DNA from: an uncultured Candidatus Peribacteria bacterium
GTDB taxonomy: Bacteria > Patescibacteriota > Gracilibacteria > UBA1369
Reading direction: 5' to 3'
DNA: 34,019 bases
NCBI GenBank assembly: GCA_964435355.1
Contig: CAYSYL010000004.1
Coordinates: 1 to 34,019, forward strand
A program made the translations under genes and the position numbers. The notes beneath the pieces were generated by a model, which did no database searches, was not told the origin of the DNA, and worked only from the letters and a program-made list of their open reading frames with translations. Below, piece after piece: positions 4,587 through 34,019 of the stretch; the stretch's first letter is position 1, and each line of letters opens with the position of its first letter.

Positions 4587-5111
4587 ATGTACTTACAAGT
4601 TGGATTGCCCGCTCCCAAGTTTTCACTTGAAGCCCTCGTAAAGGATAATTTTGAAAAAGTATCACTTGATGACTATAAGGGGAAATGGGTTGTTTTCTTT
4701 TTTTATCCGTTGGATTTTACTTTTGTGTGTCCTACGGAAATTCTGGAGTTCAGCAAACGCATCGAAGAGTTTAAAAAACTGAATGCTGTTGTTTTAGGGT
4801 GTAGCATCGACAGTGTTTATTCCCATAAAGCATGGACAAAAGAGCTCGGGGAACTCAGTTATCCTCTGTTGAGTGATATTACCCGTGATACGAGCCGCGA
4901 TTATGGAATTTTGATTGAAGAAAAAGGTATGGCTCTCCGTGGACTTTATATTATCGATGATGAGGGTGTTTTACGTTATCAGGTGGTTCATGACGTGAAT
5001 GTCGGACGAAGTGTCGATGAAACGCTTCGTGTTTTACAGGCTTTGCAAAGTGGCGAACTTTGTCAGGTTGGGTGGAAGCCAGGACAAAAAACGTTAAGCG
5101 CCAAAGGGTAA
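4587..5111 (+). CDS. Typical 2-Cys peroxiredoxin (AhpC/Prx1 family)
   Basis: Peroxidatic Cys motif FFFYPLDFTFVCPTEI. The resolving Cys is in GELCQVGWKPGQKTL near the C-terminus. Confidence 0.92.
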   Translation: MYLQVGLPAPKFSLEALVKDNFEKVSLDDYKGKWVVFFFYPLDFTFVCPTEILEFSKRIEEFKKLNAVVLGCSIDSVYSHKAWTKELGELSYPLLSDITRDTSRDYGILIEEKGMALRGLYIIDDEGVLRYQVVHDVNVGRSVDETLRVLQALQSGELCQVGWKPGQKTLSAKG

Positions 5112-5125
5112 AAAGTAATTTATCA

Positions 5126-6082
5126 ATGTTATGTATGGAAACTTCAAATCTTTATGATCTGATCATTATTGGTGGGGGTTGTGCGGGAGCAAGCGCCGGT
5201 ATGTACGCCGCACGGCTTAATTTAAAAACAGCTATTATTGCCGAACTACCGGGAGGTCTTATTACTACGACTCATCTTGTAGAAAATTGGCCGGGGATTA
5301 AAGCTATTTCCGGACCAGATTTAGCCCAGTCACTTCTGGATCACGCTTTTTCTTATGGGGTACCTCTTTTTAATGAGCGGGTTATTGAAGTGAAGAAAGC
5401 AGTTACTGATGTTCCTTCCGGAAAACAAAGCGGCTATATCGTTACAACCTCTTCTAAAATTTACCGGGCCAAAACCGTCCTTTTTGCTACGGGGACCGAG
5501 CATAAAAAATTAAACGTTCCGGGAGAGAAAGAGTTTGCCAATAAAGGTGTTTCTTACTGTGCCTTGTGTGATGGCGCATTTTTTAAAGGGAAAACCGTTG
5601 CCGTTGTTGGCGGTGGGGATTCTGCCGTGAAAGAAGCTATTTTATTGGCAGGGTTTGCTCCAAAGGTTTATGTCCTTGTTCGTGGTGATCGTTTGAGGGC
5701 TGAGGCTCCGAATGCGGAACGACTGAAAAAAAATCCTGCCATTGAAGTTCGTTTTCGAACGGAAATTGCTGAAATTCTCGGAACACAACGAGTCGAAAAA
5801 ATAAAATTACGATCCGGGGAAGAGGTGTTGCTCCAGGGTATTTTTGTAGCTATCGGCCATTTGGCTTTGTCAGGATTGGCGAAAGAGTTGGGAGTTGCTC
5901 TCAATGCTCAAGGTGAAATCATGATCAACCGCCAATCCGAAACGAATATGCCCGGCATTTATGGTGCCGGAGACGTGTGTGACAGTCATTTCAAACAAGC
6001 CATTACCGGATCTGCGGAAGCGGTAACGGCAGCTTTTCACGCTTTTGAATATATTGGAAAAACACCTGTACTTTTTGAATAG
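5126..6082 (+). CDS. trxB: Thioredoxin-disulfide reductase
   Basis: FAD-binding site IIIGGGCAGASAGMYAAR, redox CxxC motif CALCDG, NADPH-binding site VVGGGDSAVKEA, and C-terminal GIYGAGDV. The ORF track starts at 5060, overlapping the peroxiredoxin gene. ATG 5126 (or 5135), just ahead of the GxGxxG motif, is more likely. Confidence 0.9.
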   Translation: MLCMETSNLYDLIIIGGGCAGASAGMYAARLNLKTAIIAELPGGLITTTHLVENWPGIKAISGPDLAQSLLDHAFSYGVPLFNERVIEVKKAVTDVPSGKQSGYIVTTSSKIYRAKTVLFATGTEHKKLNVPGEKEFANKGVSYCALCDGAFFKGKTVAVVGGGDSAVKEAILLAGFAPKVYVLVRGDRLRAEAPNAERLKKNPAIEVRFRTEIAEILGTQRVEKIKLRSGEEVLLQGIFVAIGHLALSGLAKELGVALNAQGEIMINRQSETNMPGIYGAGDVCDSHFKQAITGSAEAVTAAFHAFEYIGKTPVLFE

Positions 6083-8267: not shown

Positions 8268-9065
8268 ATGAAAAAGTTTTTATCGGGAGTTTTTATCGGG
8301 TTTATGGTAGCAAGTTTACCCTTGGCATTGGCTGCTTCGAATACGCTTCCTTTTAAAGATGTGGAGGCGTCTCATTGGGCTTATGGTGCTATTTTTAACC
8401 TTTATGACAAGGGTTTTATCAAAGGGTATTCAGACCAAACTTTTCGACCAAACAATAACGTTACAAGAGCAGAACTCTCCGTTATTTTAGACCGAATGAA
8501 TCAGTATAATGAAAAAAGTTTTATCAGGAAAACTGATACCACTACCCATAATCTTACGCCACTGACGCTTGATCCTCTTAAACTGGCTCTCCAGTATCCA
8601 TCTACCTGGGGGATAGCGAAAATGGTTACCTATCCGAGTTATGAAGGATCGGGGAAGGGTTTCAGGTTTCATTTCAGTGGGTTACCTGATAACTCATCAG
8701 AAATACCTTTAACTTTAACTTATTTTGGTATCGATTATTCTGCAGAAGGAGAAGGCATCGAAGAGATGTTTGCTCCCCTTGTGGCTCCCAAAAGTTGTGC
8801 TGAATTGAAAGCTTTTGGAGATGAAGGATATTTAAGTTTCGCCGATGTGACCCAATGTGAACTGGTGCAGCATAACGGATTTACCATTGTTACGATGAAT
8901 TTTCCTGAACCAGAACCTGACACTATGAGTATTGGAGCGCGTCATAGTGCGCTTTTATACACCAATGATGCCACTTATCCCTATGTTTTTGCCACGGCCT
9001 CTCTTGATAGCAATGTGACACTTAATGATATGAAAAATCTTTTCATGACTGTCACAAAAATTTAA
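8268..9065 (+). CDS. Secreted SLH-domain protein
   Basis: Signal peptide MKKFLSGVFIGFMVASLPLALAAS, followed by one S-layer-homology domain (FKDVEASHWAYGAIFNLYDKGFIKGYSDQTFRPNNNVTRAELSVIL). The C-terminal ~170 aa are unassigned. Confidence 0.8.
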   Translation: MKKFLSGVFIGFMVASLPLALAASNTLPFKDVEASHWAYGAIFNLYDKGFIKGYSDQTFRPNNNVTRAELSVILDRMNQYNEKSFIRKTDTTTHNLTPLTLDPLKLALQYPSTWGIAKMVTYPSYEGSGKGFRFHFSGLPDNSSEIPLTLTYFGIDYSAEGEGIEEMFAPLVAPKSCAELKAFGDEGYLSFADVTQCELVQHNGFTIVTMNFPEPEPDTMSIGARHSALLYTNDATYPYVFATASLDSNVTLNDMKNLFMTVTKI

Positions 9066-9112: not shown

Positions 9113-9858
9113 AATTGAGATAGACTCGCTAATCCCATGGCCAGGATAGCGGCAGTTTCCATACGTAAAATCCTGTGGCCAAGAGAAAAACAATGGAGGT
9201 TTAATTTTCGGATGGTTTCTTTTTCGGATTCGGAAAATCCTCCTTCGGGGCCGATGAGAATGTTGCTAGTTTTTTTTGCCAATACCGGGTCGAAGTGGCC
9301 AACACTCCGCTCCATTGCCACGTATATGTTTTTTCGCTTTTCTGCGTCGCATGTTTCGAGGTAATGAGTCAGCATTCCCTCTTCCGAAAAGGTCGGGATG
9401 ACTCCCCTTTCCGATTGTTCGGCAGCTTCGAGAATAATTTTTTCGAGGCGATCTTTACGAATGGTGTGTTTAAATTGAGAGTGGTCGCCATGAACCACAT
9501 GTATATGCGTCACTCCCAGTTCGACGGCTTTTTGTAAAATCAGTTCCAACTTCTCCGGTTTGTTAGGAAGACATAAGGTCAACTCAAGAGAGAATTTTAA
9601 TTCATTTACATTTTCCTTGGTTTCTTTAAAAAGTAAGCCCACGGTATGTTTCTGAATAGTATCCACCTCATAATGATATTCAATGGTTTTGTCAGATTCT
9701 TTTTTTGCGGGAAGAAGAACGATTTTGTCTCCTTCTTTTATTCGAAGTACTTTTGCCATTTGGAAGAAAATTTCCGGCTCAGAAGTATCATCCAGTGTGA
9801 ATGGTTCGTTTTCTACAAGTTTTGAGGTGTGCCGTAAAAAAAATCGGTAGGTTCTCAT
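9109..9858 (-). CDS. rsmE: 16S rRNA (uracil1498-N3)-methyltransferase
   Basis: Size and layout of the RsmE/SPOUT family (PUA-like N-terminus). C-terminal SAM-binding knot motif ILIGPEGGFSESE ... LGHRILRMETAA. Its ATG overlaps the nadA stop (ATGA at 9855-9858). Confidence 0.88.
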   Translation of the reverse strand: MRTYRFFLRHTSKLVENEPFTLDDTSEPEIFFQMAKVLRIKEGDKIVLLPAKKESDKTIEYHYEVDTIQKHTVGLLFKETKENVNELKFSLELTLCLPNKPEKLELILQKAVELGVTHIHVVHGDHSQFKHTIRKDRLEKIILEAAEQSERGVIPTFSEEGMLTHYLETCDAEKRKNIYVAMERSVGHFDPVLAKKTSNILIGPEGGFSESEKETIRKLNLHCFSLGHRILRMETAAILAMGLASLSQL

Positions 9859-16510: not shown

Positions 16511-17104
16511 ATGACAAAAAAATGGGAAGAGATCGAAGGAGCTGTTGATACTTATTTCCAGAATTTGGATGGACACGGACTTCGCTCTCCCGCTTCTCCC
16601 CGTGCCCCTACTTTACCAACTCCTCACATTGAAGGGAGGGCTATCGGGGTGGCTGTCAGGGCTGCTTTAGAGAGTCAAGAGGGTGATCGAATATCTTCTC
16701 TTCCGGAATCAAAAGTGGGGACTTCTCCTGAAGCCCGGGATATGGTTATTTTTTTTGATTTGCTTCACCATGCGGCACTTCACTCAGAGGCAGGAGAATT
16801 TTTCGAAATATTTAAACGTGAAATAATCCAACCCCATTCGGGGGCATTGATGCGTTCCTTGGCCCTGGGAAGAAGCCAACGATTTTTTCCATTACTAACA
16901 GGAAGGGCTTTTATGTTTCAACCTCCGGGAGCTTTAGAGCCAAGTGAATATCATGTTTTGCCCTTCTCCGAGCAAACGTATCATCCCACTGACTTGTCTG
17001 ACCCTGGAAGAGTTTTTGTACAAACAAGAGCAAAAAATTCACCGATCGGACGACGTATTGCCGTTAATCTTTATAATGTTTTTAAGGGGTTGCTTCCCCT
17101 TTAG
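16511..17104 (+). CDS. Hypothetical protein (Pro/Arg/Ala/Gly-rich N-terminal half)
   Basis: 197-aa ORF. It ends at a TAG that is in frame with the next ORF. Confidence 0.5.
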   Translation: MTKKWEEIEGAVDTYFQNLDGHGLRSPASPRAPTLPTPHIEGRAIGVAVRAALESQEGDRISSLPESKVGTSPEARDMVIFFDLLHHAALHSEAGEFFEIFKREIIQPHSGALMRSLALGRSQRFFPLLTGRAFMFQPPGALEPSEYHVLPFSEQTYHPTDLSDPGRVFVQTRAKNSPIGRRIAVNLYNVFKGLLPL

Positions 17105-17521
17105 TTGTTCCTCTTTTTAATATTATTGTGGCTCGAAGATCAGGTCCAGACAGATGAAATTGAGAAAAGATGGGATGAAGAAAAGAAAGCGGTAGAAGAC
17201 TTACTCTTACACCTTTTCGATATAGCCCAAGAGGGGGATGAAGATCGATTTATTGATGAATGGGAATTATGCAGGGCTCAAGAAACAACAAGAAATGCTT
17301 TATTAAAACACCTGCCTTCAAGTTTTCATTTTTATAAAGACAAGGTTCTTTATGATGTTTCGTTTTGTACTGCTTTAGAACTTTTTCCATACGGGGAAGA
17401 TATAGCTTCTCCGGTTATACGAGGCATGCCGGTTATTGAAGGAAAAATCCTTGATTCTGCTAAAGGAATTGAAATTTCACTTTTTGAAGCACTTGGCGGT
17501 ATACTGCCCCGTAATGTATAA
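17105..17521 (+). CDS. Hypothetical protein, or the continuation of the preceding ORF across an in-frame TAG
   Basis: It lies in the same frame as 16511-17104. The only candidate starts near its 5' end are TTG codons (17105, 17126), with no convincing Shine-Dalgarno sequence. There is no in-frame ATG until near the C-terminus. Confidence 0.4.
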   Translation: MFLFLILLWLEDQVQTDEIEKRWDEEKKAVEDLLLHLFDIAQEGDEDRFIDEWELCRAQETTRNALLKHLPSSFHFYKDKVLYDVSFCTALELFPYGEDIASPVIRGMPVIEGKILDSAKGIEISLFEALGGILPRNV

Positions 17522-18367: not shown

Positions 18368-19363
18368 CTAACGGATATGAGTATCCCAGTACTCCATCAT
18401 TTTGGCAATTACTTTGGCTGCCTCTCCTCGAGTTATCGGTCGGTTCGGATCAAAATTTCCGTTTCCGATTCCCTGAATCAATCCTATCTCGTGGGCCCGT
18501 TCTATCCATCCCACACTCCAGCCTGAAACGTCTCGAAAGAAAGACTCACGGGTATATGTGGGATCGTATCCATACGTTGCCAAAATCACTTTTACTGCTT
18601 CCGCACGGGTAATCGAACGATTTGGGCGGAAATGGTTATAGTTATAGCCTTCAACTATGCCTCGGTCCCATGCCGTTCGAATCCAGGGTCCTTGCCATCG
18701 ATCCAAATCTCGAAAAGGACTTCCACAATCATTGTCATAACATCCTTTTTTTTGCGGTATTTTTTTGGAATGCAGAGCCATTTTTACTAGTTCAGCCCGT
18801 GTTATTTGCTGATTTGGACGGAAAGTCCTATCGGAATATCCTTCCGTAATACAAAGGTCGTATAAACGACGCACATAGATTTCGGCCCAATGATTATCAA
18901 TATCACGCGGATACGGACGTTTATTGCATTTACTTACATTTCCAGGATTGGTTGGGTTTGTCGGGTTCTTTGGATTATCAGGATTTAAAACGTTGATTAT
19001 TTCGGGACGGATAATAATTTGAGGCTTTGGGTTAACGATAGTCGGTTTGGCTGGAATATAAGGACGAACTGGCTTTGGATTGACGATAGTGGGTGTCGCC
19101 GGCGTGTAGGGCCGTGGAGTTGGATTTTCTATGGTTGGATTTGCCGGGGTATATGGGCGTGTGGTGGGGCTTACTATGGTTGGTTTGGCTGGCGTATAGG
19201 GTCTCGGGGGATTGAGAAACTGTATGGCCTTTGGATTTATTTCAATTCTAGGCTTTATGGTTGGGTTGGTTGGAGTGTATGGCCTTGTGGCTGCCTCCAC
19301 CGTTATTGGAAGTATAAATCCAAGAATGAGTATGGCCTTAATGAGCGGATTAAGTTTTCTCAT
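18368..19363 (-). CDS. Secreted envelope protein: Pro-rich repeat spacer plus three SLH domains
   Basis: Signal peptide MRKLNPLIKAILILGFILPITVEA. Five RPY(T/I)PxxPTI repeats follow. Then come three SLH domains: HWAEIYVRRLYDLCITEGYSDRTFRPNQQITRAELVKM, WQGPWIRTAWDRGIVEGYNYNHFRPNRSITRAEAVKV and GWSVGWIERAHEIGLIQGIGNGNFDPNRPITRGEAAKV. Confidence 0.87.
   Translation of the reverse strand: MRKLNPLIKAILILGFILPITVEAATRPYTPTNPTIKPRIEINPKAIQFLNPPRPYTPAKPTIVSPTTRPYTPANPTIENPTPRPYTPATPTIVNPKPVRPYIPAKPTIVNPKPQIIIRPEIINVLNPDNPKNPTNPTNPGNVSKCNKRPYPRDIDNHWAEIYVRRLYDLCITEGYSDRTFRPNQQITRAELVKMALHSKKIPQKKGCYDNDCGSPFRDLDRWQGPWIRTAWDRGIVEGYNYNHFRPNRSITRAEAVKVILATYGYDPTYTRESFFRDVSGWSVGWIERAHEIGLIQGIGNGNFDPNRPITRGEAAKVIAKMMEYWDTHIR
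19019..19285 (-). repeat. In-frame coding tandem repeats (about 45-48 bp) encoding RPYTPAxPTIVNPxP units
   Basis: Repeat units start at residues R27, R54, R69, R84 and R100 of the SLH protein. The antisense strand gives a spurious Trp/Gly-rich ORF (19019-19375 +). Confidence 0.75.
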
Positions 19364-22556: not shown

Positions 22557-24953
22557 ATGCCCAGCGTCATCCCTTCTCCTTCCAACACATCTACCGAAGA
22601 AAAAGATTATAAAATGCCCCTTGAAATCACCGTAATCCCTATTAAGGATATTGTGATTTTTCCGTCTATGGTTATGACGATTTATCTCCATAGTCAGCCA
22701 TTGATAGATGCTGTTCAGGAAGCCCATAAGCACCAGGAACTGGTGGGCCTTATTACCGAAAAAAATCCGGGAATCGGCGATTCGAAACTTTACACTACCG
22801 GAACGAGCGCCACTATTTTACAAGTCATTGCGGGCACTGCTCCGGGAGAAGCTATGGTTCTTGTCGAAGGAATCAGCCGTTTCACTGTTGTGGAGTTCCT
22901 TCAGTATGCTCCTTTCACTGTTGCCCATGTTGAACCGATTGTCGAACCGGAAGCTATGACCCTGGATCTTCAGGCAAGTGTTGAAGAACTTAAAGCCCTC
23001 ATAAAAATTGCTTCGAATGAAGGAAAAACCCTTCCTCCTGAGCTTATCGTCGGGCTTGAAAAACTTACCCTTGTCGATCAGGTAGCGGATCTTGCCTGTT
23101 CGTACCTTACCCTGGATGTTGATAAAAAACAGGAGCTCCTCGGGATTACCGATCCCGCTATCCGGATTTCAAAAATAATGGAGTATCTTCAAAAAGAGAT
23201 ACAGCTCATTAAGATTCGCCAAAAAATTCATACGGATGTGTCACAGGAGATCAATAAGAATGAACGGAATTTTTTGCTCCGTCAGGAGTTGAAAGCTATT
23301 AAGAAAGAGCTGGGAGAAGAGTCGGGTGAGATGGGTATGATGGAAGGGATGGGCGATTCTCAGCAGTTAAAAGAGTTGCATGATCGTATTTCACTAGCCA
23401 GCATGCCGCCTGACGTTGAAAAAATAGCTCAAAAGGAGTTAGACCGGCTTAAAAGAATGTTCGCCTTCTCGCCTGAGTTTTCCATGGCCAGGACGTATAT
23501 CGAGTGGCTTTGCGATATGCCGTGGAACAAAAGTTCTCCTTCCCGCGTCGACGTTAAAAAGGCCCGAGAGATTTTGGATGAGGATCACTATGGTCTGGAA
23601 AAAATCAAAGAAAGAATTTTGGAGTATTTATCGGTATGTCAGTTGAAGAAAAATTGCGGGGCTACTATTTTATGTTTCGTCGGGCCTCCAGGAGTTGGCA
23701 AAACTTCCCTTGGAAAATCTGTCGCGCGAGCCCTCGGACGACAGTTTATCCGTACGTCTCTCGGAGGGATACGGGATGAAGCTGATATTCGTGGCCATCG
23801 ACGTACCTATGTCGGGGCCATGCCGGGACGCATTATTCAAAGTATTAAACGCGCGGGATGTCATGATCCTGTTTTTATGCTGGACGAAATCGACAAGATC
23901 GGACGTGATTTTCAAGGGGATCCGGCTTCCGCTCTTCTTGAAGTTTTGGATCCTGAGCAAAACTCCAGTTTTGCCGATCATTATCTGGATGTTCCTTTCG
24001 ACCTTTCGAAAGTGTTTTTTATTACCACGGCCAATGTTCTCGATACTATCCCCCCGGCTCTTTTGGATCGTATGGAAATTATCGAACTTTCGGGTTATAC
24101 CGCCGAAGAAAAACTGGTTATTGCTAAAAAATATCTTCTTCCACGACAACTCACTTTTAACGGGCTGGATGCTTTACCCTTTACGATGACGGACTGGGCT
24201 CTTCTTACCATTATCCGATCCCATACGAACGAGGCGGGGCTTCGCGAATTGGATCGTCAGATCGGAACGGTGTGCCGGAAGATCGCGAAAGATTACCTCG
24301 AAAAGAAAAAGGTGGTGACGACGGTTGGCGCCCACGACATAAAAAAATATTTGGGCATTGAGAAGTATGAGTTTGAGATGAAGCAGGAGGAAGATACGGT
24401 GGGAGTGGCTACAGGACTTGCCTGGACAGCTTCGGGAGGTGAGATTATTTTTATTGAGGCAACCAAAATGAAAGGCAATAAAAATCTTATTTTAACGGGG
24501 AGCCTGGGAGAAATAATGCAGGAATCGGCCCGTGCTGCCCTGAGTTATACCCGAAGCCATCAAAAAGAGTTGGGTGTTAAAGATCGCCTTTTTGAAACTT
24601 CCGATCTCCACATTCATGTTCCGGAAGGTGCTACGCCCAAAGATGGCCCATCGGCCGGGATTACTATTTGTACCGCCCTTGTCTCATTACTGACGGGGAA
24701 AAAAATCCGTCGGGATGTAGCTATGACGGGGGAAATTACTCTTACCGGACGAGTACTTCCGATCGGAGGGCTTAAGGAGAAGATTCTAGCCGCACGGCGC
24801 GCCGGGATAACAACGCTTATCATTCCAGAAAAAAATAAGAAAGATGTGTCTGAAATTCCTTCCCATCTTTTAAAGAATATCGACATTCACTATGTCTCTT
24901 TTGTAAAAGAGGTTTTAAAAATTGCCCTTCTTCCTGATATGAAACATACTTAG
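22557..24953 (+). CDS. lon: ATP-dependent Lon protease (LonA type)
   Basis: N-terminal LON domain (PLEITVIPIKDIVIFPSMV). Walker A GPPGVGKTSLGKS, Walker B VFMLDEIDK, catalytic Ser in PKDGPSAGITICTAL and Lys in GGLKEKILAARRAG. The start may instead be ATG 22614. Confidence 0.95.
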   Translation: MPSVIPSPSNTSTEEKDYKMPLEITVIPIKDIVIFPSMVMTIYLHSQPLIDAVQEAHKHQELVGLITEKNPGIGDSKLYTTGTSATILQVIAGTAPGEAMVLVEGISRFTVVEFLQYAPFTVAHVEPIVEPEAMTLDLQASVEELKALIKIASNEGKTLPPELIVGLEKLTLVDQVADLACSYLTLDVDKKQELLGITDPAIRISKIMEYLQKEIQLIKIRQKIHTDVSQEINKNERNFLLRQELKAIKKELGEESGEMGMMEGMGDSQQLKELHDRISLASMPPDVEKIAQKELDRLKRMFAFSPEFSMARTYIEWLCDMPWNKSSPSRVDVKKAREILDEDHYGLEKIKERILEYLSVCQLKKNCGATILCFVGPPGVGKTSLGKSVARALGRQFIRTSLGGIRDEADIRGHRRTYVGAMPGRIIQSIKRAGCHDPVFMLDEIDKIGRDFQGDPASALLEVLDPEQNSSFADHYLDVPFDLSKVFFITTANVLDTIPPALLDRMEIIELSGYTAEEKLVIAKKYLLPRQLTFNGLDALPFTMTDWALLTIIRSHTNEAGLRELDRQIGTVCRKIAKDYLEKKKVVTTVGAHDIKKYLGIEKYEFEMKQEEDTVGVATGLAWTASGGEIIFIEATKMKGNKNLILTGSLGEIMQESARAALSYTRSHQKELGVKDRLFETSDLHIHVPEGATPKDGPSAGITICTALVSLLTGKKIRRDVAMTGEITLTGRVLPIGGLKEKILAARRAGITTLIIPEKNKKDVSEIPSHLLKNIDIHYVSFVKEVLKIALLPDMKHT

Positions 24954-25009
24954 GAGCTTTTGCAGAAGGCTCTCTAAAAATTCAAGAACTGCCTCAATTT
25001 TCAGACTTT

Positions 25010-25636
25010 ATGACTGACCGCACGCTTTTTTTAGATTTTCACACCCAACGAGACTTTTTCCCGCCTAAGGGGCGACTTCCTTTTGAAGAAGCAGGAGAGA
25101 TTCGACCCCGTCTTCGACTCCTTACTCACCATGCCATTGTTACTAAAAGTTTTCTTGTGGCCTTTGTAGAGACACACTCTGCCTGTCATCACGCTATGTC
25201 GCCTTCTTTAAAAAAGACGGTCGATTTTTGCCTTGAAGGGTCTCGTGGCAGCGAAAAAATTCCCGAGACTTCCGTACCTGACTCATATTTTGTTCATGAG
25301 TTGAAGATGCGAAACTCTCTTAGTTCTTTTTTCAAAAAAAAGTCGCAACTTATTCTCCCTACTACTCATTTTAATGCTTTCGAAAAACCTGCCCTTTTGA
25401 ATGTACTGAAGAAAAGCGGGATTACAAAGGTCGTTCTTTTTGGCATTGGTCTTGAATATGGGATTGAAATGGCTGCCCTTCAGCTTTTAAAGGCCGGATT
25501 TTCCGTCTACATTCCTGTCGACGCTGTCGCCTGTATTAATCCGGCAAATCGTGAACCTGTTTTAAAAGAGCTTCATAAAGCTGGGGTACATATCTGGAAT
25601 ACTGAGTTTCTTATTACACCCGTTGTTCCCGGTTAG
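25010..25636 (+). CDS. Isochorismatase/nicotinamidase-fold protein, possibly lacking the catalytic Cys
   Basis: LFLDFHTQRDF resembles the VDxQNDF motif, HFNAFE resembles YSAF, and VVLFGIGLEYGIEMAALQLLKAGFSVYIPVDAVA resembles GxxxDxCVxxTAxDAxxxG. In my by-eye alignment the Cys position is Gly. Confidence 0.55.
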   Translation: MTDRTLFLDFHTQRDFFPPKGRLPFEEAGEIRPRLRLLTHHAIVTKSFLVAFVETHSACHHAMSPSLKKTVDFCLEGSRGSEKIPETSVPDSYFVHELKMRNSLSSFFKKKSQLILPTTHFNAFEKPALLNVLKKSGITKVVLFGIGLEYGIEMAALQLLKAGFSVYIPVDAVACINPANREPVLKELHKAGVHIWNTEFLITPVVPG

Positions 25637-25688
25637 GTTGGCATCTACTAAAACCATGTTTTTTGTCGCGTGTGAGATGTAGAGAGAA

Positions 25689-25982
25689 GTGTTTTTCTCT
25701 TTGATTCTGGAGGCTGTTTCCCCTTTTCTTCTGGCTGGTGGCAACTTCCTTTTGACTGAGTGCCGCTTTCTTGTGGCTGATTACAACTTTCTTTTGTTCA
25801 ATTACCATTTTCTGATGAGTGTTTTCATTTTCCTTTTAATAGTTTCCATCTTTCTCATGGGAAATTTGGAGTTGCTTTCAGCTGGTTACAATTTTCTTGT
25901 GGCTGATTATAAATTTCTTGGGACTGGATGTGACTTTCTTATGGCTGAGTGAGAGTTTCTGATGGGAATAGTTTCTCGACAG
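25689..25982. repeat. 14 x 21-bp degenerate tandem repeat array in exact register (consensus nnGGCTGnnnnnnnnTTTCTT)
   Basis: Consecutive 21-mers with no indels. Examples: gtggctgattacaactttctt (25773-25793), gtggctgattataaatttctt (25899-25919), ctggctggtggcaacttcctt, ttgactgagtgccgctttctt, gggactggatgtgactttctt, atggctgagtgagagtttctg. It overlaps the GTG-initiated 87-aa plus-strand ORF 25689-25952, whose product is built of xxxxxFL heptads. Confidence 0.85.
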
Positions 25983-26062
25983 GAATCAAGGAAATGGTTT
26001 TTACTGTCTTCTGTTGCATTTTTTAAAAAATGTGTTAACATGACCGCCTTTATTTACATGTT

Positions 26063-26581
26063 ATGCGCATTTTAAAACCTATTTTAACTCTTCTTGTTTT
26101 AGCGGCGATTGTTTATTTTGCCTATCAGTGGTTTATTTTTCCTCTTTTCCAGCCGAAGGCCAAAGTCATTCATGTTATGGATGCCGATACTTTGCTTGTA
26201 AAAGAAAACGGGAAGTTGAAAGTAGTCCAACTTATCGGGGTTGATGCTCCTGAAGTAAGTGAGGACGGCAGTCGTCATCAGTGTTTTTATGAAGAGGCTA
26301 AAATAGCTACGGCTCAAGCTTTTTCAAAGACCCGCGATATAGAATTAAAAGCCGATAAGTTGTTGGGGGATACGGATATTTATCTTCGCCCTTTGCGATA
26401 TGTGAAAGTAAAAAATAGTGTTACCGTGAACGAAATGTTACTTCAGGGCGGATTTGCCAAAGTGTATCTTCCGGATCATAAATCTTTTGAGCAGGAAAAA
26501 AAGTATTTACAGCTTGAGTCTGAAGCGCGCGAAAAGAAAGTTGGTTTGTGGAGTACACAAACGTGTCGGGGAATATTTTAA
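26063..26581 (+). CDS. Membrane-anchored staphylococcal-nuclease-like (thermonuclease) protein
   Basis: N-terminal TM anchor (ILKPILTLLVLAAIVYFAYQWFIF). SNase motifs VIHVMDADTLLV ... VQLIGVDAPE ... RPLRYV ... NEMLLQGGFAKVY ... EAREKKVGLW. Confidence 0.85.
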   Translation: MRILKPILTLLVLAAIVYFAYQWFIFPLFQPKAKVIHVMDADTLLVKENGKLKVVQLIGVDAPEVSEDGSRHQCFYEEAKIATAQAFSKTRDIELKADKLLGDTDIYLRPLRYVKVKNSVTVNEMLLQGGFAKVYLPDHKSFEQEKKYLQLESEAREKKVGLWSTQTCRGIF

Positions 26582-31401: not shown

Positions 31402-31478
31402 GTGCCCGTAGCTCAGATGGATAGAGCGTTGGTTTGCGGAGCCAAAGGTCGCGCGTTCGACTCGCGCCGGGCACACCA
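31402..31478 (+). tRNA. tRNA-Arg (anticodon GCG), CCA encoded
   Basis: Hand-folded cloverleaf. Acceptor stem gtgcccg/cgggcac. D arm gctc-agatggata-gagc. Anticodon arm ttggt-ttGCGga-gccaa. Variable loop aggtc. T arm gcgcg-ttcgact-cgcgc. Discriminator A, then CCA. Confidence 0.9.
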
Positions 31479-32615
31479 GAACTTTAAAATTTCAACATTT
31501 GAGCCTTTTTCCTTATCAGAAAGGGCTTTTTGCGGTTCGAGCCGAGAAAATATCTTAAAGATAGGATTATATTCGATTTCAAGCTCACCATCACATAGAA
31601 AGTACTTATAGCCAACGGTTTTCAATATCAAATGTTTCTGTTCGACCGACTGAGCAGTTCGAAATTTATAAACTAACTTCGCAGAGAATTCAAAAGTTTG
31701 CTCACATTTCTCAAGCCAGCTCTTCTGGTTATTTTCAGATTCATCAATTTTCCTCTTTAATAAGCTCAACTGCTCTTGTAATAAAGCCTTTTGTCTCAAA
31801 TATTCTTCATCACTTAAAAGACTCCCATTTACATTGGAGGGGGAGATCCTTAGCTGGAGTAGGTTATCCAGACGTTGTTGATGGTCATTATAGTCCAATC
31901 GTAGTTTGTGTGTGCCTCCAGCTATAAGGCTTGCTTCTTCTTTATGTATTTTTGCTAATTTCTTTAACCCCCATTCCACAAAAAAAGGATGGAGCTGAAC
32001 TTTTTCAAGAAGCTTAACAATTTTTTCTTCCATTTTATCTTCTCGTACATAAGGTTGCCTACAGGCACCTCTCTTCTTAGTGCAACGATAATAAGTATAA
32101 CCTTTCTGAACTTCGGCGGTAATCATTCCACCGCAATCAGAACACTGTATTAAACCGGTATAATAAAACTCGCGCCAATGTTTTCTAGGCTTCGCTTTAT
32201 CGGTCAAAGCTATTTGGACTTTTTCAAATAAATCTCTCGAAATAAGGGGCTCATAATTGCCAAGGTACTCTTCTTCTTTATACCTCATCACCCCACAGTA
32301 AAATTTACTGCTTAGGAGTTTACTGATTGAAGATTTATCAAAGGGGCGATCCCCTTTCTTTGAATGGATTCCCATACCGTAAGCTAATTTTGCTAATTGT
32401 TCTAGCGTATAGACACCTTTAGCTGCTTCTACGGCAAGCTTTTGAATAGAAGGGCCTAGAAGAGGATCAATTTCGATCCGCTTTAAAGGTCTCTTAAGAG
32501 CAATTAACATTTCTTGTTTTTTATGATCATAGAGTTTACCGGCTATTCTCCCATTACGATCAATATTTAAATAACCTACAGGGGCAACTCCTACCCACTC
32601 CCCTTTTTCCAGTTT
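31413..32615 (-). pseudogene. Large serine recombinase lacking its N-terminal resolvase catalytic domain
   Basis: The frame is open from 32615. It encodes the recombinase domain start (LEKGEWVGVAPVGYLNIDRNG), then the Zn-ribbon (CSDCGGMITAEVQKGYTYYRCTKKRGAC) and a coiled coil. A stop lies immediately upstream (32616-32618), and the next gene starts at 32653 on the other strand. No catalytic Ser domain of ~140 aa is therefore present. The 3' end of the ORF reads antisense through the terminator into tRNA-Arg. Confidence 0.75.
31502..31531 (+). terminator. Probable rho-independent terminator after tRNA-Arg
   Basis: agcctttt-loop-aaagggct (one G-U pair) followed by TTTTT. Confidence 0.5.
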
Positions 32616-32652
32616 TTATTTTGAGGCAGAAAATTGGAAAAATTTAGAGCAG

Positions 32653-33129
32653 ATGGTTAGGAATTGGAAAAATAAAGCTTTACTTAAAAGACGGTATAAA
32701 ATATTGATGGATTGCGTAGTATTTATAAAAATTGCTGGCAAAAGAAGAATAAACAGTGCTAATGCGGTCTTACCTACCTTAATAACTCAAATCGACGGCG
32801 CTTTGAGCGACTTTCTAGATTCCAAACATATCCAATGGGATTGTGATTATGATGATTGGGTTGATCTTAAGACCGGAAAGATTAGAAAAGTTGGAAGAAA
32901 GACTCAATATAAAAATTCAAAGCCAAAGGTTTTAAGTCATTCTCTTGATGATCTTGCAAACGATATATTTTTGAATATCTTGTTCCAAAAATCTCAAAGT
33001 GGAAAACCGCTTAACACACCATTTAATTTCAATAGGCACAAAATAATTCATGGCGAAAGTGTTAAATACGGTAGAAAAGATTATTTAATTCGAGCATTCA
33101 TGGTCTTGGATTTGCTTGCACATCTTTAA
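32653..33129 (+). CDS. Hypothetical protein with a C-terminal HEPN-like Rx4H motif
   Basis: 158 aa. The C-terminal segment FNFNRHKIIHGESVKYGRKDYLIRAFMVLDLLAHL contains R-x4-H followed by an amphipathic helix, as seen in many HEPN nuclease families. The assignment rests on this motif only. Confidence 0.4.
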   Translation: MVRNWKNKALLKRRYKILMDCVVFIKIAGKRRINSANAVLPTLITQIDGALSDFLDSKHIQWDCDYDDWVDLKTGKIRKVGRKTQYKNSKPKVLSHSLDDLANDIFLNILFQKSQSGKPLNTPFNFNRHKIIHGESVKYGRKDYLIRAFMVLDLLAHL

Positions 33130-33262
33130 TAAAAGTAGAATCGATAAATTTCAAAAATATAATTAGGGATGTCGGACAATAAATTTATCATTTTTAAAGG
33201 CTCTTCAGTTGCACATACGGCTTGCACGTGTTAACCTACTATCCCAGAAAAACACCACAAAC

Positions 33263-33736
33263 ATGACAACACCAAAAACCAAACAGCTGCTTGCTTATTT
33301 ATCTAGCAAGCATATAAATGCATCGCTGACTGTTTTGATGAAACTTGCTTATTTGGTTGACCTCATTAGTTACAAAAAAAATAAAAAACAAATCTCTGAC
33401 TTTAGATATATAAGATTTTACTACGGTCCTTATGATTCAGCGATAAACGAATATATCGAAGAACTATTAAAAGAAGGCATTATCTGTGCACAGCCCGAAT
33501 ATACTTATTCAGGTAGTGAGTACATAATTTACCATTTTAATACTGATAAAGGATTTTCCTTCGATGCCTTGGAGATACCTGAAATTGAATTGATAGATGG
33601 AGTTCTGGAAGGTCTCAAAGGATATGGAGCAAAAACGTTAACAGATATAGCATATAAGACAGCTCCATTAGTTAAATTGAAAGCTACACAGGGGGGAAAA
33701 GAACATCTAGGAGAATTACTTGATCTCGGTGCATGA
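33263..33736 (+). CDS. Panacea (DUF4065, SocA/PanA-like) antitoxin-domain protein
   Basis: LTVLMKLAYLVDLISYKKNKKQISDFRYIRFYYGPYDSAINEYIEELLKEG fits the KLxYLxD ... GPY core of the Panacea domain. ATG 33263 is preferred over the TTG 33209 given in the ORF track. Confidence 0.65.
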   Translation: MTTPKTKQLLAYLSSKHINASLTVLMKLAYLVDLISYKKNKKQISDFRYIRFYYGPYDSAINEYIEELLKEGIICAQPEYTYSGSEYIIYHFNTDKGFSFDALEIPEIELIDGVLEGLKGYGAKTLTDIAYKTAPLVKLKATQGGKEHLGELLDLGA

Positions 33737-34019
33737 TAGTCTTTCCTTTCTTTCCAGATGAATTCCATTTAAAAAAGATTGCAACCAGGCATTTGTATTT
33801 TGATAAAAAATCTAAAGAAAGCTCGACAAACGTCATTAAACCCAAATACAAACTTGCCGGTATCAATGATGTTTTAACTGATATAAGCGGAGTATATCGC
33901 TTTTTTGTTGGAACATCTGAAAAAACGTCATGCCAAAAAGAATTAACCTTGGTGGTTCAGCCTGATCACTGGGAAGATATTGAGGGAAGCCATGTATCTA
34001 CTATTGGCACTGCAAATGG
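33733..34019 (+). CDS. Unknown ORF translationally coupled to the Panacea gene (candidate toxin; partial, runs off window)
   Basis: ATG 33733 overlaps the upstream TGA (ATGA). Hand translation gives MIVFPFFPDEFHLKKIATRHLYFDKKSKESSTNVIKPKYKLAGINDVLTDISGVYRFFVGTSEKTSCQKELTLVVQPDHWEDIEGSHVSTIGTANG..., which stays open to the window end. No motif recognised. Confidence 0.45.
   Translation, partial: MIVFPFFPDEFHLKKIATRHLYFDKKSKESSTNVIKPKYKLAGINDVLTDISGVYRFFVGTSEKTSCQKELTLVVQPDHWEDIEGSHVSTIGTAN

Follow-up and report, generated by a model that had tools for sequence, protein, structure and literature searches.

We analysed a 34,019-nucleotide stretch of DNA from an uncultured Candidatus Peribacteria bacterium (contig CAYSYL010000004.1; hereafter the window), which carries an array of degenerate 21-bp tandem repeats. 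The array lies within a 426-bp spacer between an isochorismatase-family hydrolase gene and a gene for a membrane-anchored staphylococcal-nuclease-like (SNase) protein. The flanking genes named in an earlier, first-pass annotation of this DNA were identified correctly, as the isochorismatase domain and the SNase domain were both found. The Lon gene is located upstream of the locus and a class II ribonucleotide reductase (RNR) gene, in convergent orientation, downstream. The remaining window consists of ordinary chromosomal genes. Coordinates of the features are presented in Table 1.

Table 1. Features of the repeat locus, in window coordinates
Feature	Position	Strand	Basis or remark
Isochorismatase-family hydrolase gene	25010-25636	+	Domain match; upstream of the array
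64-codon open reading frame	25614-25808	-	Only open piece of the Lys-rich heptad frame
Unit 1, marginal	25689-25709	no strand	9/21 to consensus; holds the GTG that opens the 87-codon frame
GTG-initiated 87-codon open reading frame	25689-25952	+	Nearly coextensive with the array; only frame open across it
Twelve solid 21-bp units (2-13 in first-pass numbering)	25710-25961	no strand	Consensus identity; Tandem Repeats Finder
Unit 14 of the first-pass annotation	25962-25982	no strand	5/21 to consensus; not a repeat unit
Putative SNase promoter	26014-26041	+	TTGCAT, 16 nt, extended -10 TGTTAACAT; read directly from sequence
Membrane-anchored SNase-like gene	26063-26581	+	N-terminal membrane anchor; downstream of the array

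Period 21 is the strongest periodicity of the window. Self-identity across 25689-25982 is 0.553, 0.544 and 0.494 at lags of 21, 42 and 63, against a mean of 0.280 (standard deviation 0.038) for 294-bp windows across the whole stretch, and no other place in the window and no other lag from 4 to 63 approaches these values. In Tandem Repeats Finder the array comes out as two pieces of period 21 (25725-25793 and 25881-25948), both with 0% indels, which share one register and stand 168 bp, that is 8x21 bp, apart. This formal repeat analysis bears out the period that the first-pass annotation had seen by eye in a sequence that it had quoted exactly. The motif GGCTGN8TTTCTT, with at most one mismatch, has nine matches in the window, eight of them inside the array, as compared to 1.2 in shuffled sequence.

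The consensus of the array is GTGGCTGATTGCAA(C/T)TTTCTT, and the unit written as a single 21-mer is TTTCTTGTGGCTGATTACAAC. Units 2-13 agree with the consensus at 11-19 of the 21 positions, whereas random 21-mers from the window agree at 5.6±2.1. Fourteen units had been proposed earlier; with unit 1 only marginal and unit 14 discarded (Table 1), twelve solid units are left. The likeness of unit 14 is limited to ATGGGAA, which it has in common with unit 9, and only TTTCTGATGGGAA echoes the junction between units 8 and 9. The repeat therefore does not run about 30 bp past the stop of the 87-codon frame, as had been stated, but only about 10-16 bp. The reported likeness of units 5 and 11 (19/21 identical) was reproduced. 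There are 72 differences from the consensus across the 252 bp of the solid units (~29% divergence), requiring at least 60 changes by parsimony, and adjacent units show ~55% pairwise identity. The register nevertheless never slips, exactly as had been claimed: there are no indels in the twelve units, even through the most degenerate ones (6-9), which keep TTTCTG, TTCCTT, TTTCTC and TTGCTT in register. The spacers form about three variant groups (units 5/10/11, 2/7/8 and 4/12/13), and no higher-order repeat structure or periodic order was seen among the units. Unit 3 (25735-25742) also contains GCTGGTGG, the Escherichia coli Chi octamer, probably by coincidence; degenerate Chi-like versions are present in other units, e.g. 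GCTGATTA, GCTGGTTA and ACTGAGTG.

Conservation is concentrated in a 13-bp core, TTTCTTnTGGCTG, which reaches across the junction from one unit to the next. The 8 bp after it form a variable spacer, in which the T at unit position 10 is conserved. Unit positions 16, 17, 19 and 20 are invariant and clustered as TTnCT; the probability of finding four sites with zero changes inside 5 nt is P=0.0003 for the 60 parsimony changes and P=0.027 for the absolute minimum of 37 changes. Sites in the core have undergone 2.2 changes each and sites in the spacer 4.0, so that the core changes at about half the rate of the spacer. The G at unit position 3, a third codon position in the plus frame, is kept in 12 of 14 units, while unit positions 8 and 11, which are second positions (of codons 3 and 4), belong to the most variable sites.

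The array was found in one other record. A contig of the Logan collection (L001, run SRR11567520) is 100% identical over 24613-26279 and carries the only other copy, and no close relative is present in any collection searched. The SNase query found no match in species genomes, the Lon query found nothing above 51% identity in them, and the isochorismatase has a single homologue, 41% identical, among 5.8 billion proteins. The closest Lon proteins are 63-68% identical over their full length and 71-76% identical for three partial sequences; their few named bearers are Candidatus Gracilibacteria or Patescibacteria. Gracilibacteria presumably read TGA as Gly; for this window such a code was rejected because 8 of the 31 open reading frames (ORFs) end in TGA and neither Lon nor RNR has an in-frame TGA.

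Eight more distant relatives were reached via Lon (62-68% identity; 74% for the partial Lon of contig L164), and the period-21 array is absent from all eight. An SNase gene is present near Lon in five of them and the isochorismatase gene is also kept in two of these five. In one of the two (L165) the spacer between isochorismatase and SNase is 106 bp long and holds a different, hairpin-forming 17-bp repeat in two copies together with a promoter; in the other (L210) it is filled by an unrelated gene for a 307-aa membrane protein. In L166, L207 and L211 a cation-efflux gene takes the place of the isochorismatase gene. Since the spacers of the relatives differ and none contains the array, we regard the array as a lineage-specific expansion in a variable spacer: it is an old tandem amplification of a 21-bp unit, now decayed. 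Two possible sources of it were rejected. The array shows no tblastn similarity to the 307-aa gene of L210, of which it might have been a relic, and its only exact match in the isochorismatase gene is 12 nt long (at 25150) with nothing beyond. Short direct repeats are located upstream of SNase in L165 (9070-9110, 17 bp x2, GCTCCGGGAGCTGGGTG) and in L207 (about 5158-5184, 13 bp x2, AAGGCCGATTTCW), and the spacer seems prone to tandem duplication.

Searches beyond the relatives support the earlier statement that neither unit nor peptide belongs to a described family, over Pfam, NCBIfam, PDB, Rfam, the plasmid and phage records and the sequence collections. A blastn search in distant mode of 72,556 plasmids and 50,697 phages gave no DNA match. 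The unit does not recur elsewhere in the window. Scans of viral and metagenome collections with two-unit patterns revealed no second array of the same kind; they returned 82 viral and 35 metagenome loci, every metagenome locus being a single match, and two viral loci with 2-4 matches were found to be other, mostly coding, arrays. A few of the scan loci contain period-21 arrays, which are unrelated to ours and are mostly the antisense of long ORFs for Lys-rich proteins. Other 21-bp arrays were seen on metagenome contigs L179 (1460-1696), L193 (741-1250) and L200 (969-1160); they read as small heptad ORFs (PFLRAAT..., KKILSNR... and PKKLRVS..., respectively) and are mutually unrelated. Literature searches gave nothing specific to such an array.

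A lineage-specific array with no relative in the collections searched, in a spacer whose content differs from relative to relative, could be a functionless relic: a 21-bp minisatellite formed by slippage and now decaying, with the ORF, the core and the phase all accidental. Young, near-perfect 21-bp arrays do arise spontaneously between genes (the array of contig L209, described below, is one), other long spacers are present in the window, and the openness and stop counts of the array in every frame match a simulation of neutral decay. However, 252 bp have taken at least 60-72 substitutions and no indel. The ratio of substitutions to indels in bacteria is near 20:1, at which about four indels would be expected and the probability of none is about 0.01-0.03. 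The clustering of the invariant sites (P=0.0003 to 0.027) and the halved rate of change in the core are likewise not anticipated by decay alone. Neutral decay thus fits poorly, and we consider a functionless origin of the pattern rather doubtful.

The array is nearly coextensive with an 87-codon ORF, and the first-pass annotation had offered a coding reading beside one of helically phased binding sites. It had correctly noted that 10 of the 12 heptads of this ORF end in Phe-Leu. An open frame of this kind is expected where a stop-free 21-bp unit is repeated. When 12 consensus copies were decayed by the observed substitutions, 1.4-1.9 stops were expected in the +0 frame and one is present (P(<=1) 0.44-0.57). 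The ratio of nonsynonymous to synonymous changes (pN/pS) between units in this frame is 0.80 against a column-shuffle null of 0.99±0.24, which is not significant (P=0.21). Conservation shows no 3-periodicity, with an information content of 0.92, 0.68 and 0.65 at the three plus-frame codon positions and 17, 19 and 24 parsimony changes, respectively. The third-position bias that had been proposed as a check of the coding reading was thus not found between units overall. Only the TTTCTT block fits it: positions 1 and 2 of its Phe and Leu codons are invariant, whereas each of the two third positions has changed three times. The codon log-odds score of the +0 frame is 0.021 per codon, below 148 of 149 real-gene windows and above most antisense windows (genes of the window 0.247±0.095, minimum 0.008; antisense frames -0.34±0.18, maximum 0.029).

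Homology gave no indication of a gene either. A search of 5.8 billion proteins found no word-sharing homologue of the 87-aa peptide, PDB has no sequence that matches it, neither the plus nor the minus peptide matches a Pfam or NCBIfam family, and an exhaustive HMMER search of 1.84 billion representatives returned six matches, all of them unrelated low-complexity repeat ORFs. AlphaFold2 predicts the 87-mer as one continuous helix (pLDDT, its per-residue confidence score, 92), which is generic output for Leu/Phe-rich strings and no evidence of a fold. The ORF is most likely a by-product of the repeating stop-free unit, and the array as a whole is probably non-coding. A comparable case is contig L209 (Bacteroidota-like, GCA_965190365.1), where a young, near-perfect 11-copy 21-bp array, GTTGCAGGTTGTAATATTCTC, follows the rho terminator directly, at 5043-5294. 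A 156-aa ORF, P0128, has been called from it, with a weak match to an ice-binding-repeat Pfam family. P0128 is the most similar of the six HMMER matches and is almost certainly a spurious ORF from an intergenic repeat. As a relative of our array it was rejected, because its 15/21 unit match is at chance level for a pick from ~1.8 billion proteins.

A micro-protein born from the repeat, starting at GTG 25689 or ATG 25815, would be a very hydrophobic single-helix heptad peptide that probably inserts into the membrane; its pattern is [LVM]-[AST]-x-[YCS]-x-F-L. Its frame is the only one open across the array, Logan's gene caller accepts it, and the invariant first two positions of its Phe-Leu codons go with third positions that vary mostly synonymously. 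Of the 12 heptads, 9 have a hydrophobic residue in column 1 and 10 a small one in column 2, and the predicted helix is continuous. The missing ribosome-binding site is not counted against it, as the genes of this organism are without Shine-Dalgarno sites. The openness is, however, what chance provides, pN/pS lacks significance, hardly any real-gene window scores lower in codon usage, and there are no true homologues in our searches. The repeat is without overall 3-periodicity, and codons 3 and 4 vary strongly at their second positions, which rank with the most variable sites. The frame would start with GTG, as compared to ATG in 24 of the 29 long ORFs of the window, and its stop falls inside unit 13, where the TTTCT core after the stop is still intact. 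The 85-residue helix comes from a single-sequence prediction, and the hydrophobic residues at heptad positions a to d ring it, forming neither a coiled coil nor an amphipathic face. We therefore regard such a peptide as unlikely.

On the other strand, the first-pass annotation had described a Lys-rich heptad frame (KKVVISH, KKAALSQ and similar) broken by stops, and the stops are present in units 8 (TAA) and 10 (TGA). The array could be what remains of an inactivated minus-strand gene for such a heptad-repeat protein, the more so as most other period-21 ...TTTCTT arrays, on viral contigs, are the antisense of long Lys-rich-heptad ORFs, and the differences between AGC and AGT (Ser) and between CAY and CAR (His/Gln) appear synonymous or conservative in this frame. 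Against this, there are two stops inside the array and two more just upstream of it, there is no start codon at the array edge, and the spacer is too small for a longer gene. A pseudogene should also gather indels. The two stops of the -0 frame compare with 1.9-3.4 expected under neutral decay, its codon log-odds score is -0.075 and its pN/pS is 0.95. The first Lys codon is AAG (or CAG/GAG) in 14 of 14 units and never AAA, in a genome that prefers AAA 3:1, which points to conservation at the level of DNA and not of protein. A former minus-strand gene is thus very improbable.

The positional conservation suits an RNA motif as well as a DNA motif. The array could accordingly act in transcribed form, as a sponge in which the motif UUUCUUnUGGCUG, or CAGCCAnAAGAAA on the other strand, titrates an RNA-binding protein. 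Such an RNA would be either the 3' untranslated region of the isochorismatase mRNA, as no intrinsic terminator separates the array from the isochorismatase stop, or an antisense transcript from a promoter-like site within the array (25934-25906), a 10/12 sigma-70-like match on the minus strand. The minus-strand RNA is predicted to be unstructured, so that its motifs would be accessible. However, neither strand folds significantly better than shuffles (z-scores -1.8 and +1.1, the latter for the minus strand), and Rfam has no family at gathering score, the only matches being sub-threshold (E>2) and outside the array. The promoter-like matches occur at chance rate (3 vs 3.1 expected), no partner protein was found, and a sponge needs no exact 21-nt spacing. 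We consider a role as RNA quite unlikely.

An element that reads as the probable promoter of the SNase gene is located between the array and the gene (Table 1); a strict consensus promoter scan did not detect it. It has counterparts upstream of SNase in L210 (about 8775-8802, TTGCAT-16-TGTTATGAT) and in L165 (about 9118-9145, TTGCCA-16-TGTTATACT). The architecture, namely TTGCAT/TTGCCA, 16 nt, an extended -10 of TGTTAnnnT and a short leader, is seen in loci whose SNase proteins are only 38-42% identical. The distance to the -35 hexamer downstream is ~52 bp from the end of the last solid unit and ~46 bp from the last bases that still resemble the repeat.

Of the two readings put forward originally, the coding one has gained no statistical support, and we favour the other, since the conservation falls on a 13-bp DNA core and not on codon positions, and since the units never depart from their 21-bp phase. 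The position of the array shortly before a promoter whose architecture recurs in relatives, and its restriction to one lineage, also speak for this reading. Because the core and the fixed 8-bp spacer are both preserved, the cores lie on the same face of the double helix, two turns apart. Our tentative explanation is that the array may be a set of helically phased binding sites for a putative DNA-binding protein, with selection keeping the phase and the ligand being a protein on double-stranded DNA. About 12 copies of one sequence-specific protein would bind side by side and form a cooperative filament or a wrapped complex, which would end ~46 bp upstream of the SNase -35 hexamer. The SNase promoter would be the target: the complex may regulate it or insulate it from read-through of the isochorismatase gene.

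Several observations weigh against phased sites. The positional tests were made post hoc and are weakened by the common ancestry of the units, so that the positional conservation counts as moderate evidence only. The variable positions 18 and 21 in the best-kept block are the third positions of the Phe and Leu codons, a pattern that coding predicts and that has a chance of about 1 in 15 under a DNA-motif model. The core motif is not enriched outside the array (7 matches vs 5.3 expected for the whole window) and there is no sign of a regulon in the window. Intrinsic curvature, predicted with a wedge-model trajectory, is unremarkable, with the array at the 38th-50th percentile of the window. The window has other large spacers (306-814 bp), so DNA without a function can survive in this genome. 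The array adjoins no gene of the Rep, Par or transcription-factor kind, and there is no candidate binding protein. Finally, there is no orthologous array in the relatives.

In anatomy, phased sites of this kind are close to iterons, the 17-22-bp repeats bound by Rep initiators in plasmids and phages, e.g. in pSC101, R6K, P1, RK2 and the lambda origin. Both are head-to-tail, non-palindromic repeats that combine a conserved core with a variable spacer and strictly keep a phase of about two turns of the helix, and the array consists of tandem direct repeats in helical phase with exactly 21 bp in each of its 12 units. Iteron sets usually have 3-7 units, and those of the array are far more diverged than is typical. 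In contrast to iterons, the array has no rep gene, adjacent AT-rich unwinding element or DnaA boxes, lies among chromosomal housekeeping genes and has no DNA similarity to the plasmid or phage records searched. A Pfam scan of long ORFs of the window detected no Rep-family domain, the neighbours being Lon, isochorismatase, SNase and class II RNR. The best match to a DnaA box, judged by eye, is 7/9 in only two units, and the flanks of the array are ordinary spacer. GC skew does not switch at the array; its cumulative minimum is near 4.5 kb and not 25.7 kb. With neither a Rep or Par gene in the vicinity nor a binding protein found, the array is not an iteron set in the strict sense.

The array also resembles the centromeres of partition systems (R1 parC, 11 bp x10; pSK41, 20-bp repeats; F sopC, 43 bp x12), which consist of many phased direct repeats coated cooperatively by a small DNA-binding protein. 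Such centromeres are located directly upstream of a par operon, whereas no parA, parM, parR or parB is present in the window. The array thus resembles iterons and centromere repeats in anatomy but belongs to neither class, lacking a Rep or Par gene and any origin feature. A more specific and more doubtful version of phased binding is that it is a chromosomal platform of the iteron or centromere kind, with no Rep or Par gene nearby, in which the 12 phased cores nucleate a filament that controls or insulates the promoter of a nucleotide-scavenging nuclease.

With variable-number tandem-repeat minisatellites, of which the L209 array is a young example, the array has in common a lineage-specific tandem arrangement in a variable spacer, a unit of 3n bp and an ORF that arises incidentally; unlike their young, near-identical copies it is old, is free of indels and has a conserved core. 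Sponge RNAs such as CsrB and RsmZ also hold many copies of a short motif in one stretch, but theirs are displayed in hairpin loops at irregular spacing, whereas the array is unstructured, exactly spaced and without an Rfam match. Protein segments may also be born from tandem repeats, and those of Borg elements are reported to be recently formed and rapidly evolving and to create intrinsically disordered protein regions (PMC9879509). In such repeats, as in the array, a unit length divisible by 3 opens a frame of amino-acid repeats; unlike the Borg repeats, the array is decayed, its peptide is strongly hydrophobic and no coding signal was detected in it.

Some further features of the window were noted. 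Its genes are without Shine-Dalgarno sites, and TTAACC(A)A is present 10-20 nt upstream of several starts, among them the ATGs at 4587(+), 9858(-), 11804(-) and 15696(-); it is possibly a promoter or leader motif of the lineage. The second strongest periodic signal of the window is a 45-bp tandem repeat (2.3 copies, 74% matches) at 19098-19201, inside an SLH-domain gene (18368-19363, minus strand). The plus-strand frames 16511-17104 and 17105-17521 are one frame split by a single TAG, neither part having a Pfam match; a pseudogene, read-through or an assembly error could explain this. At the right-hand end a tRNA-Arg(gcg) gene (31402-31478) overlaps the 3' end of a serine-recombinase-like gene (31413-32510, minus strand) without a catalytic resolvase domain, to the right of which GC drops to 34-36% and a SocA/Panacea antitoxin-like gene is located (33209-33736). 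The region 31402-34019 is probably a mobile element integrated at the tRNA gene.

As a singleton locus from a lineage not in culture, the array is of limited practical value; its significance depends on which explanation is true. If the array encodes a micro-protein, it would show cleanly how a gene can be born from a tandem repeat. If it is neither a gene nor a set of binding sites, it would serve as a caution that any stop-free repeat unit with a length that is a multiple of 3 creates an ORF which gene callers accept. To our knowledge, regulation in bacteria of the candidate-phyla-radiation type is almost unknown. If the array does consist of phased binding sites, it would be among the very few cis-regulatory or architectural DNA elements described for such bacteria, and its 13-bp core would provide a defined bait for fishing out the protein that binds it.

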